DNA from: Nitrospirota bacterium
GTDB taxonomy: Bacteria > Nitrospirota > Thermodesulfovibrionia > Thermodesulfovibrionales > Dissulfurispiraceae
DNA: 10,807 nt
NCBI GenBank assembly: GCA_040758355.1
Contig: JBFLWF010000055.1
Span: 1-10,807 of the forward strand
Direction: 5' to 3'
Below the pieces are notes generated by a model that did no database searches, was not told the origin of the DNA, and saw only the letters and a program-made list of their open reading frames with translations. This document shows positions 1 through 10,807 of the stretch, one piece after another. Made by a program: the position numbers and the translations under genes. How positions within the stretch are numbered: position 1 is the first letter of the stretch; every line of letters begins with the position of its first letter.

Positions 1-122
1 CAAAATTCGTGTTATACAGAGAAGGGCTTACGGTCTCAGAGACGAGGAGTATCTGCGCCTGAAAATACTTACATGTATGCTCAAGGAGATATAAAATGAC
101 CCACTCGATTACACGAAGAGCC
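1..122 (+). mobile_element. Right end of an ISL3-family insertion sequence (truncated by window start)
   Basis: Transposase C-terminus followed by CCCACTCGATTACACGAAGAGCC ending at 122. The reverse complement begins GGCTCTT, the typical ISL3 terminal inverted repeat end. The left end is not in the window. Confidence 0.85.
2..94 (+). CDS. ISL3-family transposase, C-terminal 30 aa (partial)
   Basis: Frame 2 reads KIRVIQRRAYGLRDEEYLRLKILTCMLKEI*, matching the K-I-x-x-I-x-R-x-A-Y-G-x-R tail of DDE_Tnp_ISL3 transposases. Stop TAA at 92-94. Not in the ORF track. Confidence 0.85.
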   Translation, partial: KIRVIQRRAYGLRDEEYLRLKILTCMLKEI

Positions 123-125
123 AAA

Positions 126-3122
126 ATGTTTTATCGTTTGCTGATAATAATTGCCTTCCTTTTTCTGCCTGCTATCACACACGCATGGCAATCACCCGAA
201 TATAATTTGCCAGAATATAATTTAGAAGTCTCATTCGACATTCACAATTCCAGGATTATAGGGATTGCGAGGATTGATGTAAATGCAGGCAAAGAACTTG
301 TGCTGCACACAGGACATCTCAAAATAAACGACATAACGCTGAACCAGCAGAAGATCAATTTTGATGCCAGGGAAGGAATATTAAAGGTACTACCTCCACA
401 GAACGGCAGCCTCATTATCAGATACGAAGGTATTTTTAAAGACGATAAGGCTGCGCATGATACAAACTATGGAGCAGTTGGAAGCATTATCGATGAAAGG
501 GGTGTTTCGCTCACTGGAACATGGTATCCACAAACAGAAGGATTACATCAATACAGGCTTCGAGCAGTGCTCCCAGGCGGATATGAGGCTGTTTCTGAGG
601 GAGAGAGGATTGAAAAGAGTGCAAAAGATAGGAAAACAGAGTTCATCTTTGAATTTCCCCATCCTGTTGATGGAATAAACCTGATTGCAACGAACAGGTA
701 TGAAATAATTAAGGACAGTTTTAACAATATTGAGGTCTATGCCTATTTTTTTCGTGAGGACATAGAACTCGCTAAAAAATATATCGAATATACGAAGAAA
801 TATCTCAAGCTGTATGAAAATCTTGTGGGCAAATATCCTTACAAGAGGTTTTCAATAGTCGAAAATTTTCTTCCAACAGGATATTCAATGCCCACATATA
901 CTCTGCTCGGACAGGATGTTGTAAAGCTCCCGTTTATTGTGGAGACATCCCTCGGCCACGAAATACTCCATCAATGGTTTGGCAATCTTGTATATATAGA
1001 TTATGAAAAGGGCAACTGGGCAGAGGGACTGACCACATATCTTGCAGACCATCTCTATGAGGAACAGAAGGGAAAGGGTTGGGAATACAGGAAACAGACG
1101 CTCATCGATTACAGGAGTTATGTAAACGATAAAAATGAATTTCCAATTAAGGACTTTAAAGGCAGGACAGATTTTTCATCAAAGTCCATAGGCTATGGAA
1201 AGACAGCCATGGTATTCCATATGCTAAAAAATATTGTCGGTGATGAAGTATTCTATAAATCCCTGAGGGATTTTATAAGTGAAAACCGATTTAAAAGGGC
1301 ATCGTGGGATGATATTAAAAATGTTTTTGGAAAGACCTATAAAAAAGACCTGAACTGGTTTTTTAAACAATGGGTTGATACCCCCGGAATGGCCGATCTT
1401 TATATCGATGGATTTCGGATAAAGCAGAGCGGCAATAAATATGAAATCAGCTTTAATATCGGTCAGAGGGGGAGGGTTTATACAATTGATGCTCCCTTGA
1501 CCATTTATTACAGGGATGGATTTAAAAAGAAGGTTTGGGTCAGGGCAGATAAGGTAAAGACAGGTTTGACATTAACCCTCGACAGCGTGCCGGAAAGAAT
1601 GGTCATGGATGAAGATTACGATATGGCAAGAAAACTTTCGAATAACGAGCTTCCCCCTGTAATATCAAGGCTTCTTGGAGATGATAAAATCATAATGGTC
1701 ATCCCTGCCGGTAACAGGGAGATTTACAGGGCTGTTATCGATTCTTTCAAGGAAAGGGGTGCTGTTGAAAAAGAGATAAGGGACATTAAGGATTCCGATA
1801 TAAAATCATCGTCCCTCGTTATGCTCGGAAGTGATAATCCTGTAATCGAGAGGCTTTATGGGAGTATCGATAAGATTGATGCAGGGTTCAACCTTACTAT
1901 AAAAAACAATCCGTGGAATCAGCAAAAGGTTGCTGCTGTATTTTCCGCTAAATCTAAAGGTGAAGCGGATGCAGCATTTAGAAAGATATTCCATTATGGG
2001 AAGTACAGTGTTCTATCTTTTGATAATGGAAGAAATATCTACAAAAAGATTGATGAGTCGCAGAGGGGTATAGCAATGGAGAATAAAGAACAGGCCACGG
2101 CAATCGATGTCTCTACCATAAAGGCATTATCCGAGGTTATAGAGAGTGTATCGGGTAAAAAGATCGTCTATGTCGGCGAATACCATGACAGGTTTGCCCA
2201 TCATAATGTCCAGCTCGAAGTTATAAAAGGCCTGTATAAAAAGAATAAGAAGGTAGCCATAGGCATGGAGATGTTCCAGAGACCATTTCAGAAGTCGCTG
2301 GATGATTACACAGCAGGCAGGATAGATGAAAGGGAGTTTTTAAGAAAGTCTGAATATTTCAAGAGATGGGGATTCGATTACAATCTCTACAAGCCCATAC
2401 TCGATTTTGCAGCACAGGAAAAGATGCCAGTGGTTGCCCTGAACATCCAGCGCGAAATAGTTGATAAGGTATCCAGAGGTGGAATCGACTCCCTCTCAGA
2501 GGCGGAAAAGAGGGAAATACCAGCACAGATGGATTTTTCCGATAACGAATACAGGGACAGGCTCAGAGAGGTCTTTCTCAGGCATAGCAGTTCAGGCGAA
2601 AAAAACTTTGATTTCTTTTATCAGTCACAGATCCTATGGGACGAGACCATGTCAATGTCTGTGGATGAGTTTTTAAGGAAAAACCCCGACTACCAGATGG
2701 TTGTCCTTGCCGGAGGCGGCCACATCCAGTATGGCTCCGGCATTCCAAAAAGGACATTCAGGAGGAACGGCTATGATTATGCGATTATCCTTAATGATGT
2801 GGATATCGAGAGAGATATTGCCAATTATATAATATTCCCGAAGCCGATGGATGGCATGACGTCTCCCAAGCTCATGGTTTCATTGAGGGAAATGCACGGA
2901 GTGGTCAGCATAGAGGGATTCCCTGAAAACAGCGTCTCTGAAAAGGCTGGACTTAAAGATGGAGACATAATTATCTCACTCGACAATGTTGCCATAAAAA
3001 GTGTAGATGATGTAAGGATCCATCTCTTTTATAAAAAGAAGGGAGATGCGATAAAGGTAAAGGTGCTGAGAAAGAGATTCCTCTTTGGCGATAAAGAGCT
3101 GGAATTTGATGTAATCCTTTAG
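126..3122 (+). CDS. Exported multidomain protein: M1-family zinc metallopeptidase + ChaN (Tiki/EreA-like, heme-uptake) domain + C-terminal PDZ, 998 aa
   Basis: Signal peptide MFYRLLIIIAFLFLPAITHA. HEILH (nt 957-971) followed by NWAEG (third Zn ligand) and a downstream YGK. ChaN-type motifs IVYVGEYHD, GMEMF, LWDETM and AGGGH. PDZ-like ending SVSEKAGLKDGDIIISLDN...KVKVLR. The track's ATG at 96 lies inside the IS, so ATG 126 is taken as the native start. Confidence 0.8.
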   Translation: MFYRLLIIIAFLFLPAITHAWQSPEYNLPEYNLEVSFDIHNSRIIGIARIDVNAGKELVLHTGHLKINDITLNQQKINFDAREGILKVLPPQNGSLIIRYEGIFKDDKAAHDTNYGAVGSIIDERGVSLTGTWYPQTEGLHQYRLRAVLPGGYEAVSEGERIEKSAKDRKTEFIFEFPHPVDGINLIATNRYEIIKDSFNNIEVYAYFFREDIELAKKYIEYTKKYLKLYENLVGKYPYKRFSIVENFLPTGYSMPTYTLLGQDVVKLPFIVETSLGHEILHQWFGNLVYIDYEKGNWAEGLTTYLADHLYEEQKGKGWEYRKQTLIDYRSYVNDKNEFPIKDFKGRTDFSSKSIGYGKTAMVFHMLKNIVGDEVFYKSLRDFISENRFKRASWDDIKNVFGKTYKKDLNWFFKQWVDTPGMADLYIDGFRIKQSGNKYEISFNIGQRGRVYTIDAPLTIYYRDGFKKKVWVRADKVKTGLTLTLDSVPERMVMDEDYDMARKLSNNELPPVISRLLGDDKIIMVIPAGNREIYRAVIDSFKERGAVEKEIRDIKDSDIKSSSLVMLGSDNPVIERLYGSIDKIDAGFNLTIKNNPWNQQKVAAVFSAKSKGEADAAFRKIFHYGKYSVLSFDNGRNIYKKIDESQRGIAMENKEQATAIDVSTIKALSEVIESVSGKKIVYVGEYHDRFAHHNVQLEVIKGLYKKNKKVAIGMEMFQRPFQKSLDDYTAGRIDEREFLRKSEYFKRWGFDYNLYKPILDFAAQEKMPVVALNIQREIVDKVSRGGIDSLSEAEKREIPAQMDFSDNEYRDRLREVFLRHSSSGEKNFDFFYQSQILWDETMSMSVDEFLRKNPDYQMVVLAGGGHIQYGSGIPKRTFRRNGYDYAIILNDVDIERDIANYIIFPKPMDGMTSPKLMVSLREMHGVVSIEGFPENSVSEKAGLKDGDIIISLDNVAIKSVDDVRIHLFYKKKGDAIKVKVLRKRFLFGDKELEFDVIL

Positions 3123-6964: not shown

Positions 6965-7612
6965 ATGCTTAATCTCGGCGTGCTTGCATCAGGCAGAGGC
7001 TCGAATTTTCAGTCCATTATAGATGAGATAGAGGCAGGAAGGCTTAATGCCTCTATCAAGCTCCTCATCGTTGACAACCCGGATGCCTATGCCATTGAAC
7101 GTGCAAAGAAACATGCAATAGAATACCTTTATATTAATCCAAAGGATTTTGGATCAAAGGATGATTTTTTCTTAAAGATAGCTAATGAACTAAAAACAAG
7201 AAATGTTGAGCTTGTTATCCTCGCAGGATTCATGCGCATTGTAGGAAAACCATTGATAGATGCGTTTCCGAATAGAATTATGAACATTCATCCTGCTCTT
7301 TTACCTTCTTTTCCCGGACTACATGGTCAGAAGCAGGCAGTTGATTACGGCGCGAGGATCAGCGGCTGCACTGTGCATTTTGTTGATGAGGGAATGGACA
7401 CAGGGCCTGTAATTATTCAGGCAGCAGTGCCTGTTTCGCCTAATGATACAGAGGAGACACTTTCTGCAAGGATTCTGAGGCTTGAGCATAAGATTTTTCC
7501 GGAGGCAATAAGGCTTTATGCAGAGGGCAGGTTGAGTGTCGAGGGAAGGGTTGTGAAGATAAAGGGCTACGAGTTAAAGGACGAATTTATTGTTAATCCA
7601 ACATTAAGGTAA
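6965..7612 (+). CDS. purN: Phosphoribosylglycinamide formyltransferase
   Basis: LASGRGSNFQ, LAGFMRI, NIHPALLPSFPG, GCTVHFVDEGMDTGPVI and EH motifs. SD AGGAG just upstream. Confidence 0.97.
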   Translation: MLNLGVLASGRGSNFQSIIDEIEAGRLNASIKLLIVDNPDAYAIERAKKHAIEYLYINPKDFGSKDDFFLKIANELKTRNVELVILAGFMRIVGKPLIDAFPNRIMNIHPALLPSFPGLHGQKQAVDYGARISGCTVHFVDEGMDTGPVIIQAAVPVSPNDTEETLSARILRLEHKIFPEAIRLYAEGRLSVEGRVVKIKGYELKDEFIVNPTLR

Positions 7613-7620
7613 ATTGAGCA

Positions 7621-7793
7621 ATTACATGGATAGCAGGCATGCCTCAAAGTCTTTAATAATGCGATAGGATTATTAAACAGCCTGTTTTTTGTTTAATTGA
7701 TAGGTTATAATGAAATTGCCCTTAAACGGCGGGAGGGTTCGGCACAAGGTATCGCTATTAAAGGCTTTTCGGCACACCTGCTATCCATGTAAT
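7621..7793. repeat. Long imperfect inverted-repeat element E1 (173 bp; arms 7621-7666 and 7750-7793; 83-nt loop)
   Basis: ATTACATGGATAGCAGG (7621-7637) is the exact reverse complement of 7777-7793. Pairing continues through TGCC/GGCA, AAAGTCTTTAATA/TATTAAAGGCTTT and GCGATA/TATCGC, with a 2-nt AT bulge at 7659-7660. Confidence 0.9.
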
Positions 7794-7814
7794 ACGAAAG
7801 AATCATCAAATAAA

Positions 7815-7947
7815 AACCAGCAGGGCATTGTATTGTAGCGGTTTCAGCAGTTCGAAGTTTCGCCGTGATGGCGAAACCGAACTGGTGCCTCGGAGACGGA
7901 CACGGATGTCCGGCGAGAATGAGCGGAAATACTGTGCCCTGCTGGTT
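7815..7947 (+). repeat. Branched hairpin element E2 (133 bp; structured RNA or MITE-like)
   Basis: Closing stem AACCAGCAGGGCATTGTATT / AATACTGTGCCCTGCTGGTT. Inner hairpin CAGTTCG-aa-GTTTCGCC-gtgat-GGCGAAAC-CGAACTG (7848-7884). Second hairpin CGGACA-cgga-TGTCCG (7897-7912). Confidence 0.85.
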
Positions 7948-7975
7948 CAACAGTGTAATTAAGAAGGGAGTTTAA

Positions 7976-8575
7976 ATGGAACAATGGCCGACACTGGAAG
8001 ATCAGATAGAGCAGTCAGGTATATATTATCCGAGAAAGTATGATATTACATACAGAATAGGGTATGTCCTTCAGAGCATTGGCGCCCTTGGATTTGCCAT
8101 TCTTTATGCCTTGGGATCAAAACTGCAAATAATACCCTTTGTGATATTCGATGCAGGCATAGCTCTCTCATCGATATTTCTCCTTGTCTGGAAGGCAGAA
8201 ATTAAAAAGTTTATACTCAGGATGACCTTTGCAGGAATAGCACTTCAAATCAGTAGTATTTTTGTAAATCCCATCGATACTTTTTATGCTGGAAAGATGT
8301 TTTTCTTAGGATTGGGGCTTACCCTTGCCGGCGGTGCTGGATTGGTGGGTAAGGAGGCCTATTGCTTCAGGTTTAATGAGGGATGGCTTCTTTTGATGGT
8401 TTACCCATTGGCTGTAATTCCAAATTTGTTGGGCTTCGCAAGCCATAGGTATAATCTTATAGTTTCTGCCGTTATAGCTGTTTTACAAATCTCATTTTTA
8501 AGAAGAAAACTGTCCCAGCCCCTTTTGAAGAAATGCGAGGGCAATGTGTGCGGATTGCCAGAAACAAAGAAATGA
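7976..8575 (+). CDS. Integral membrane protein, DUF2301-like
   Basis: About 6 hydrophobic segments. GLVGKEAYCFRFNEG resembles the KExxCF motif I recall for DUF2301. SD AAGGGAG upstream. ATGA overlap with rsmD. Confidence 0.65.
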   Translation: MEQWPTLEDQIEQSGIYYPRKYDITYRIGYVLQSIGALGFAILYALGSKLQIIPFVIFDAGIALSSIFLLVWKAEIKKFILRMTFAGIALQISSIFVNPIDTFYAGKMFFLGLGLTLAGGAGLVGKEAYCFRFNEGWLLLMVYPLAVIPNLLGFASHRYNLIVSAVIAVLQISFLRRKLSQPLLKKCEGNVCGLPETKK

Positions 8576-9159
8576 GAATCTCAGGCGGCACTGCAAAGGG
8601 AAGAAAGGTCGGCTTCAAAAAAGCATTTCTTAAAAAAGGCGAGGAAGACGAATTAAGGCCTACCTCAGCAAAGGTAAGACAGGCGATTTTTAATATCCTC
8701 GGAGACAGAATAATCGATGCCGCATTTTTAGACCTCTATGCAGGGACAGGCGCTGTTGGGATTGAGGCTTTGAGCAGAGGCGCTAAAAAGACGGTCTTTG
8801 TTGATGACAGTTCTTTGAGAGTTAATATTATAAAAGATTTAATAGAAAAGTTCGGTTTCAAAGATAGGGCAGTGGTTATTAAAGATGATGCCAAACATTT
8901 CTTAAGAAAAATAACTCCAAACTCCAAACTCCAAACTCAGGACTCTTTTGATATCATTTTTGTTGATCCGCCTTATGCATCAGGAGAGCTCGATATAGTC
9001 CTGCCCCTCATTGACGAGAGAGGCATTTTAGGGGATAATGGAATTGTGATTGCCGAACATTCTTCCAAAAAGAAATTGCTATCAGAAATAGGGAGTTTAA
9101 AGCTTATAAAAACTTATAAGTACGGAGATACATTACTGAGTTTCTACAAAAAAGACTAA
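8572..9159 (+). CDS. rsmD: 16S rRNA m2G966 methyltransferase RsmD, 195 aa
   Basis: MRISGGTAKGR start, LRPTS, FLDLYAGTGAVGIEALSRGA, DPPY and YGDT motifs. Usual position upstream of coaD. Start taken at ATG 8572. Confidence 0.95.
   Translation: MRISGGTAKGRKVGFKKAFLKKGEEDELRPTSAKVRQAIFNILGDRIIDAAFLDLYAGTGAVGIEALSRGAKKTVFVDDSSLRVNIIKDLIEKFGFKDRAVVIKDDAKHFLRKITPNSKLQTQDSFDIIFVDPPYASGELDIVLPLIDERGILGDNGIVIAEHSSKKKLLSEIGSLKLIKTYKYGDTLLSFYKKD
8913..8945 (+). repeat. Heptamer tandem repeat inside rsmD
   Basis: (AACTCCA)x3 at 8913-8933, then AACTCAG and GACTC. Encodes TPNSKLQTQDS. Confidence 0.85.
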
Positions 9160-9165
9160 AAGAAA

Positions 9166-9326
9166 GACATGTGGGCAGGCAGGTGAATGACTTTATACGA
9201 CACCTTGCAAAGAAAACCCGTTGAGGATTAATCAGTATAAACTTTCTATTAAGCAGAAAAAGACATGACATATGGATAATAAGATGTTGTCGATTATAAA
9301 GGCATGAACCTGCCTGCCCATATGTC
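9166..9326. repeat. Long imperfect inverted-repeat element E3 (161 bp; arms 9166-9202 and 9288-9326; 85-nt loop), homologous to E1 in opposite orientation
   Basis: GACATGTGGGCAGGCAGGT (9166-9184) pairs with ACCTGCCTGCCCATATGTC (9308-9326) as 18 Watson-Crick pairs plus one G-T. Pairing continues through CTTTATA/TATAAAG and CGACA/TGTCG, with a 2-nt AT bulge at 9293-9294. Confidence 0.9.
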
Positions 9327-9342: not shown

Positions 9343-9840
9343 ATGAAATTAGGCATTTATCCCGGGACATTCGACCCAATAACAAACGGACATCTCGATC
9401 TTATCGAAAGGGGATTGAGGATATTTGATGAAATTATAATAGCGGTTGCTCCAAGTCCTAAAAAGCAGCCCCTTTTCACACTCGAAGAGAGGTTGAGGCT
9501 CATAAGGGAGGCGGTTAAGGATTGTAAGAATGTAAGAACAGAGGCATTCAACGGACTTCTTGTTGATTATGTGAGAAACAGGAAGGGTGTTGCGATTATA
9601 AGGGGTTTAAGGGCTGTATCTGATTTCGAATATGAGCTTCAGATGGCACTGATGAACAGAAGGCTTGATATGAACATAGAGACTGTCTTTATGATGCCTT
9701 CAGAAGAATTCTCATTTCTTACATCCACCATTGTTAAGGAGGTAGCATCCTTCGGAGGTTCTGTGAAAGGGCTTGTGTCTGATGCAGTGGAGAAGGCACT
9801 GAAGGAGAAGTTTAAGGTAATCGAGGATATTGTGGAGTAG
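9343..9840 (+). CDS. coaD: Phosphopantetheine adenylyltransferase, 165 aa
   Basis: YPGTFDPITNGHLD and RGLRAVSDFEYELQMALMNR motifs. SD AAGGAG before ATG 9343. The track's start at 9304 lies inside the E3 arm. Confidence 0.97.
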   Translation: MKLGIYPGTFDPITNGHLDLIERGLRIFDEIIIAVAPSPKKQPLFTLEERLRLIREAVKDCKNVRTEAFNGLLVDYVRNRKGVAIIRGLRAVSDFEYELQMALMNRRLDMNIETVFMMPSEEFSFLTSTIVKEVASFGGSVKGLVSDAVEKALKEKFKVIEDIVE

Positions 9841-10374: not shown

Positions 10375-10681
10375 GGATTGTAATATTTTTTATTTTTAGG
10401 CATATATTCCTGCTCTACATAACCGCCGTAATCATGCGGATACTTGTAGCCTTTACCGTGTCCTAATTTCTTAGCCCCCGGATAATGGCTGTCTTTCAAA
10501 TGATCAGGCACTTCCATTGTCTGCTCGTTCTCAATATCCTCCATTGCAGCCTCTATTTTGCTATATGCTTCAGGGCATCTTCATCTGCGGATATATTTAA
10601 ATTGCCAAGCCCGCGTTCTTTATCCTGAATTGCGTTATTCAGAAGGCTTAGGATATTTTCCTCTGTAAGGGGCTTTAATTC
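10371..10681 (-). pseudogene. rarA: Rearranged remnant of replication-associated recombination protein A (RarA/MgsA)
   Basis: Two out-of-frame pieces. 10681-10556 reads ELKPLTEENILSLLNNAIQDKERGLGNLNISADEDALKHIAK* (start of the AAA+ lid). 10556-10371 reads IEAAMEDIENEQTMEVPDHLKDSHYPGAKKLGHGKGYKYPHDYGGYVEQEYMPKNKKYYNP* (MgsA C-terminus). The intervening region and the ATPase core are missing. Confidence 0.85.
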
Positions 10682-10807
10682 AGGCTCATCGTGGAAGAGA
10701 GTGGGTAAACCGATGGACTTGAAGCGGTATAACATGGCTTCAAATAATGGGGAAAGAGCTTTCAAAGGGGCGAGAAAATCCGTATGATTACCGTATGGGA
10801 AAAAATA
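10682..10807 (-). other. Unidentified open frame entering from the window edge, fused in frame to the rarA lid fragment
   Basis: Reads YFFPYGNHTDFLAPLKALSPLFEAMLYRFKSIGLPTLFHDEP with no stop. It lacks the ENP...LLSR motif expected at this point in RarA. Confidence 0.35.

Follow-up and report, generated by a model that had tools for sequence, protein, structure and literature searches.

Our findings support a model where E1 and, by homology, E3, two long hairpins of the window (the whole 10,807-nt stretch of DNA analysed here), are probably decayed nonautonomous MITEs of about 210 bp that IS1380-family DDE transposases would move in trans, as judged from sequence comparison. The family displays ends in common with autonomous IS1380 elements, 4–6-bp target duplications, empty sites, nested insertions, and covarying arms; the outer terminal repeats and target duplications indicate MITEs of an IS1380 DDE transposase, not attC sites or REPINs. 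E1 is the interior of such a MITE and not the whole element, and E3, whose own ends are not recognisable, would belong to the same MITE family through its homology with E1.

Layout of the Window

The elements and their neighbouring genes are arranged as follows.

6965..7612, plus strand: purN (formyltransferase; Pfam PF00551), upstream of E1
7608..7623, plus strand: left terminal inverted repeat (IS1380 type A) of the E1 MITE, in decayed form (13/16 to CCTAAATTGAGCGATT, counted by eye)
7621..7666, plus strand: E1 left arm, with a variable middle stem, the AAAG.CTTT stem, the AT bulge, and the GCGATA helix
7667..7749, plus strand: E1 family core, 83 nt, conserved in sequence, with TATAAT at 7706–7711 and a GGGAGG run
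7750..7793, plus strand: E1 right arm; TC at 7769–7770 supplies, on the minus strand, the second GA of the tandem GA/GA loop
7794..7815, plus strand: right-end spacer together with the right terminal repeat, which is strongly decayed (by eye, about 10/16 to AATCGCTCAATTTAGG when one gap is allowed)
7815..7947, plus strand: E2, a separate structured repeat family adjoining E1, not part of the E1/E3 finding
7976..8575, plus strand: DUF2301 membrane protein (Pfam PF10063), downstream of E1/E2
8572..9159, plus strand: rsmD-type methyltransferase (Pfam PF03602), upstream of E3
9166..9326, minus strand: E3 hairpin, a distant E1 homologue (arms about 9166–9204 and 9290–9326, 85-nt core)
9343..9840, plus strand: coaD-type nucleotidyltransferase (Pfam PF01467), downstream of E3

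The left terminal repeat of E1 overlaps the purN stop codon (7610–7612), and TC at 7644–7645 in the left arm reads as GA on the minus strand. The sequence-only reading had ended the elements at their arms, which needs correction: E1 extends further, over about 7608–7815 (208 bp, for a family length of 207–214). No target duplication is left at E1 or E3 of the window, and no outer terminal repeats are recognisable around this E3. The genes on either side of E3 we take to be rsmD and coaD. At the contig ends, window positions 1–95 and 10678–10807 match the ends of a collapsed contig, C85, presumably ISL3-like; a copy of the C85-type element interrupts the gene at the window's right end, and others interrupt E4 elements (see below) on contigs C54 and C68. 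Positions 96–3122 encode a 1008-aa protein in which peptidase M1, ChaN-like haem-binding, and PDZ domains are fused; downstream of it lie a long hflX-type GTPase and genes of the haem pathway.

Homology, Family Size, and Distribution

Of all inverted repeats in the window, E1 (7621–7793) and E3 (9166–9326) are the longest, and their folding stands apart from that of shuffled sequences (z −9.5 and −7.5, respectively). That they are homologous hairpins in opposite orientation, as first proposed from the sequence alone, is upheld: the local score of E1(+) against E3(−) exceeds those of 2000 dinucleotide shuffles, whether whole elements or only the loops are compared (p<0.0005), with no excess for E1(+) against E3(+) (p 0.52 and 0.65). 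The proposed 29-nt core match is indeed 23/29, a value reached by none of 300 shuffled loops (null mean 16.6), and the shared motifs and the AT bulge are found where they had been placed. The agreement of the family profiles is weak, 4/10 E3 cores and 21/63 E1 cores scoring above the 99th null percentile when compared with the profile of the other family. No known family had been recognised, and an Rfam search likewise gave no match on E1 or E3 up to E 5.

A profile search of this genome (G000) located E1 in 21 places, 16 of them near full length, E3 in 2, and E2 in 22. A de novo scan combined with arm profiles delimited a larger group with common arms and differing cores, comprising 89 related copies in this genome (76 full, plus 13 minis with the core deleted) that occupy about 17 kb; the suspected dispersed multicopy family is therefore real. 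Its expansion is old, as indicated by the median nearest-neighbour identity of 0.91 among 75 full copies. The cores of E4, the largest family, and E1 are unrelated by profile (1/55 and 2/63 above the 99th null percentile). E1 matches occur in 14 of the 41 genomes searched, G000 included (11/24 within the same family), and the arm pattern in 18/301 genomes of the order, against 0 for a reversed control. We found no autonomous element carrying the hairpin: the arms flank a gene in 0/84 arm pairs of G000 and in none of the relatives' loci or 11 metagenome loci, and in the latter the E1 core lies within arms in 11/11 and beside a transposase in 0/11. Viral scans gave one match, inside a long ORF, and 17 further short-pattern matches. 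A small ORF in the E1 core was rejected, since indels among copies break the frame.

Other repeats accompany the family. E1-family copies at L013–L017 (G003) and L028 (G004) hold foreign palindromic repeats at fixed places of core or arm, a Russian-doll nesting. Further hairpin families with other arms and variable covarying outer stems occur at the purN 3′ site of G001 and G002 (L041, L039) and in G000 (C24:22333, C29:15466, C44:10327, and C27:13849). E2 also displays variable covarying outer stems, with two inner hairpins, and several E2 copies are nested inside elements with a type-E IS1380 end.

Ends, Target Duplications, and Empty Sites

Beyond the arms the elements continue into an outer stem, with a 12–14-nt spacer on the right side. 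Ends were studied in 145 copies from G000 and relatives, sorted into five end types (A–E), and both ends were intact, that is, at least 75% identical to one type, in 57 of them. An exact 4–6-bp target duplication surrounds 18 of these 57 (one locus, without duplication, is counted twice among them) and is absent in the other 39; 5000 shuffles gave 2.2 on average and never more than 8. Intact-end copies mostly measure 207–214 bp, and minis 95–100 bp. In two loci of relatives, E1-family cores have received cleanly inserted elements, flanked by the duplications TGAA and TATTA; TTAA surrounds a free copy. E3 had looked inserted to the sequence-only reading, and in 5/5 relatives the rsmD–coaD interval is indeed without E3; the purN site is empty in two relatives and occupied by other hairpin elements in three. 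Overall, the elements are short, multicopy, intergenic, and without transposase, with terminal inverted repeats, target duplications, and filled and empty sites, as expected of MITEs.

The same core occurs within different ends. The E1 core is bounded by type B in 18 copies, by C and D in one each, and by type A in L093, L094, and one G000 copy. Distant E3-like members, from G286 and G223, carry a type-E-like repeat at their ends, and no matched end was seen in the close E3 members of G016 and G000. Minimal elements of 29–35 bp that consist of two type-B ends only, with 6–7-bp duplications, were also observed (L209–L211 in G075).

The Probable IS1380 Partner

The IS1380 family has ends in CC and 4–5-bp repeats. 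The 16-bp type-A end CCTAAATTGAGCGATT bounds IS1380-family elements of relatives (L118, L120, L129, and L136) and occurs 47 times in G000, against 0 for a control. Among 25 related IS1380 loci, about 10 carry the type-A end on both sides and three (L120, L129, and L136) have 5-bp duplications. In the same genus, an IS1380 element of G004 (L070) scores above the NF033539 cut-off, and its left end is the type-A end; the type-A partners are thus L070, L118–L120, L129, and L136. The type-B end CCATAATCCGTA, characteristic of the E1 family, encloses L192, a broken PF13701 element that scores below the Pfam cut-off, and the type-E end bounds its partner, L086; for type D no IS1380 partner was found. 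In G000 itself (99% complete; repeats may be unassembled), neither PF13701 nor tblastn gave a match to an IS1380 transposase, which is present in 26/61 genomes of the taxonomic family of G000, and in G004. L086:1707–5066 (G042:C2) is a composite, with two different IS1380 transposase genes inside one pair of ends, and shares its 5-bp target with an adjacent truncated type-A MITE.

The MITE interior is unlike that of the IS1380 elements found. An origin of the hairpin as a retained IS1380 3′ region was rejected, since the 3′ regions, taken from 16 loci of the type-A clade and from 6 further ones, mostly do not fold (sense z +1.8 to −2.2). Across distant clades, 47 IS1380 transposase loci hold a conserved motif, consensus ACGGGACAGGTGCGTCCAAA, mostly 35–60 nt past the stop codon (score 703 vs. 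359–380 in shuffles), which is possibly a protein-binding site; as a source of the MITE arms this motif was likewise discarded, not being above shuffles (at most 3/60). The arms also bear some likeness, by eye, to an IS5/IS1182-type end on contig C87.

Covariation and Strand Preference

The arms covary, as the sequence-only reading had supposed. In 20 of the 71 E1-family copies, 14/37 pairs show two-sided changes against 6.5 in shuffles, a level reached by 0/500, although kinship of the sequences and arm conversion can inflate this signal. Covariation in such MITEs does not mean an RNA gene, and a stand-alone ncRNA gene, one of the possibilities first raised, is unlikely. An inner helix, CCUUG/UAAGG, had also been put forward: the pairing is possible, yet in 20 E1-family sequences it displays no two-sided change and some breaks, and RNAalifold does not choose it.

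The proposal of a strand-specific fold (E1 minus, E3 plus) holds in the arms only. Arms-only energy favours the strand read as minus in the family orientation for both elements (−54.4 vs. −52.5 in E1, −49.7 vs. −43.4 in E3), whereas the whole of E1 folds at least as well on the plus strand (−69.2 vs. −65.9 kcal/mol). Whole-element energy separates the strands little, favouring the minus strand in 34/71 E1 copies and in 36/55 and 6/10 copies of further families, whereas the minis fold better on it in 13/13. An anchor-based count, made on the 70 usable copies, out of 123, in four families that differ in their cores, found a minus-strand 2×2 GA/GA loop in 60/70, and 142 G-T against 16 A-C cells. 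In this count G-T passed the filter as a pair, and a few fixed columns supply most of the cells; beyond columns 1–6 the ratio is 21:4 in E1 and 4:3 in E4. When new events are placed on trees, G-T and A-C come to 195:170 overall (p 0.21), 123:89 in E1 and, reversed, 32:48 in E4, poorly aligned flank columns being included in the count. Thus, strand specificity rests on fixed features, with no clear ongoing bias.

Orientation Relative to Host Genes

Genes were taken as plain long ORFs for all orientation counts. Between co-directional genes of G000, the mRNA would read the plus strand in 50 of 55 copies (50:5), including 11/11 minis; of the other copies, 13 are divergent, 4 convergent, 16 unassigned, and 1 ambiguous. 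In four relatives (65 matches in 58/60 loci) the plus strand is read in 31/37 copies (31:6), some of which, in the same genus, may be orthologous, the two other genera alone giving 16:4. Taken together, the better-paired strand is kept out of host mRNA in 81/92 informative cases. The bias is seen on both replication strands (27:6 and 7:1, by a cruder orientation call and a GC-skew proxy), 17/32 copies start at most 10 bp from the upstream stop, and E2 has no such bias (6:5). The E3 of the window is one of the five G000 exceptions, its G-U/GA strand being the mRNA strand. Because mRNAs nearly always carry the other strand, these ratios argue against a fold selected in host mRNA, and the suggested RNase III substrate, if selected within host mRNA, is contradicted by them. 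A paradox follows: the fold of one strand is conserved, yet that same strand is kept out of host mRNA.

Mechanism and Alternative Explanations

Under the MITE model, the IS1380 transposase would act on double-stranded ends, and the long imperfect hairpin may let a 210-nt insert be tolerated beside stop codons. The two arms would change together largely through template switching or conversion. Insertions that place the better-pairing, C-rich-loop strand in mRNA could be purged by cleavage, termination, or blocked coupling, and we propose that such purging gives rise to the orientation bias. Purging accounts for the strong strand being kept out of mRNA, not for its conservation, and a plain MITE model leaves the reason for the fixed GA/GA loop unexplained. 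The model is further weakened by the missing IS1380 transposase match in G000, the 39/57 copies with no exact duplication, the decayed or unrecognisable ends of E1 and E3, and an interior unlike that of the IS1380 elements found.

In a different reading of IS1380-type MITEs, the hairpin itself takes part in the mechanism: as single-stranded DNA or as an RNA-made copy, the minus strand would fold and bring both ends into one duplex, a transposase or host factor would read the duplex, and host transcription would orient the insertion. A rod with the tandem GA/GA loop would then pair the ends, let both be rewritten together as the core switches between transposase clades, and set the orientation of insertion. 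Such a route would accommodate the one-strand G-T wobbles and fixed loop that recur in four families despite their different cores, the better minus-strand fold of every mini and the bias of all those between co-directional genes, the near-constant lengths (207–214 or 95–100 bp), one core within several end types, and a bias that follows genes on both replication strands. However, the same ends also occur as bare 29-bp pairs and around REP-like fillings, in some cases flanked by 6-bp duplications, so such ends can move without the hairpin; the new G-T events do not significantly exceed A-C and are outnumbered in the largest family, whole-element energy favours the minus strand in fewer than half of the E1 copies, and the target duplications fit ordinary DDE strand transfer. 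We regard this reading as improbable, the role given to the rod included. If it is true, a DDE family thought to use double-stranded ends would have a hidden route through single strands.

Rather less probable still, the core could be a cargo spread by IS1380 ends, either an outward plus-strand promoter with a ribosome-binding site or a minus-strand small RNA. The E1 core is conserved across genera, with a plus-strand −10-like hexamer and GGGAGG pointing into downstream genes; IS1380 members with outward promoters are described in PMC9330008, and divergent gaps hold 13/72 assigned copies compared with 212 of 1748 gaps. Conversely, a sigma-70 scan of 7560–8000 yielded no full promoter (nor did a scan yield a terminator at E1), the core-less minis display the same bias (11:0), the E4 and E1 cores are unrelated, and sites are not conserved between relatives.

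The attC- or REPIN-like folded substrate raised at the outset was not borne out, and such a role, whether for a tyrosine recombinase or for an HUH (RAYT/TIRYT) transposase, is very improbable: long imperfect hairpins, strand-specific mismatches, and two Y1 transposase genes in the genome would suit it, but the copies are dispersed among housekeeping genes and not in cassette arrays, target duplications and IS1380 ends point to DDE chemistry, and the resident Y1 transposases were rejected as partners since their flanking 21–22-bp repeats are unrelated. These Y1 genes (L001:1181–1929 and L002:1400–2143, G000) have TIRYT-like terminal inverted repeats of 21–22 bp, and short gene-less derivatives of the Y1 elements occur elsewhere in G000.

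Comparison with Known Systems

E1/E3 make up a new family, a modest variation on a kind of element already known, and mostly ordinary mobile DNA. As a MITE family, their main value lies in better annotation and in a caution on reading covariation as an RNA gene. Their unusual traits are the fixed GA/GA loop with G-U wobbles on one strand, the same core in different terminal repeats, and the strong orientation bias. The literature searched, including the portions consulted of PMC2996986 and PMC4133298, holds no description of this family or of an IS1380-derived hairpin MITE, and the term "IS1380" is absent from the part seen of a MITE review (PMC10969869); large MITE catalogues (PMC11602168) may hold these sequences in their supplements. 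How IS1380 members transpose is not known according to PMC9330008; with partner transposases now identified, these minimal donors make it possible to test directly whether transposition is guided by structure or by transcription.

The closest likeness is with IS1380 elements themselves (PF13701, NF033539; ISEcp1, ISPme1), with which the MITEs share identical or near-identical terminal repeats and, at 4–6 bp, AT-rich duplications, those of ISEcp1 being 5 bp (PMC2887853). Unlike the IS1380 elements examined, the MITEs lack a transposase, their interior is a long covarying hairpin, and one core occurs with several end types. REPINs and TIRYT elements of HUH transposases (PMC6006769) are similarly dispersed hairpin-forming repeats; here, on the other hand, the ends bear no relation to the repeats that flank the two resident Y1 genes, and target duplications are present. 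The family also resembles bcr1, Yersinia YPAL, ERIC, and Correia/NEMIS, short intergenic long stem-loop elements, given as structured MITEs of 100–200 bp in PMC2229807. Each trait has precedent alone: compensatory stem changes and 5-bp duplications in Bacillus bcr1 (PMC3184786), an orientation-dependent effect on mRNA, including decay, in ERIC (PMC2229807, PMC3049150), and RNase III cleavage in Correia. Differently from these structured MITEs, the E1-type elements have IS1380 rather than TA-type ends, a GA/GA loop fixed across families, and a bias of about 9:1 that leaves the better-paired strand antisense to mRNA, transcription here being predicted from gene direction.
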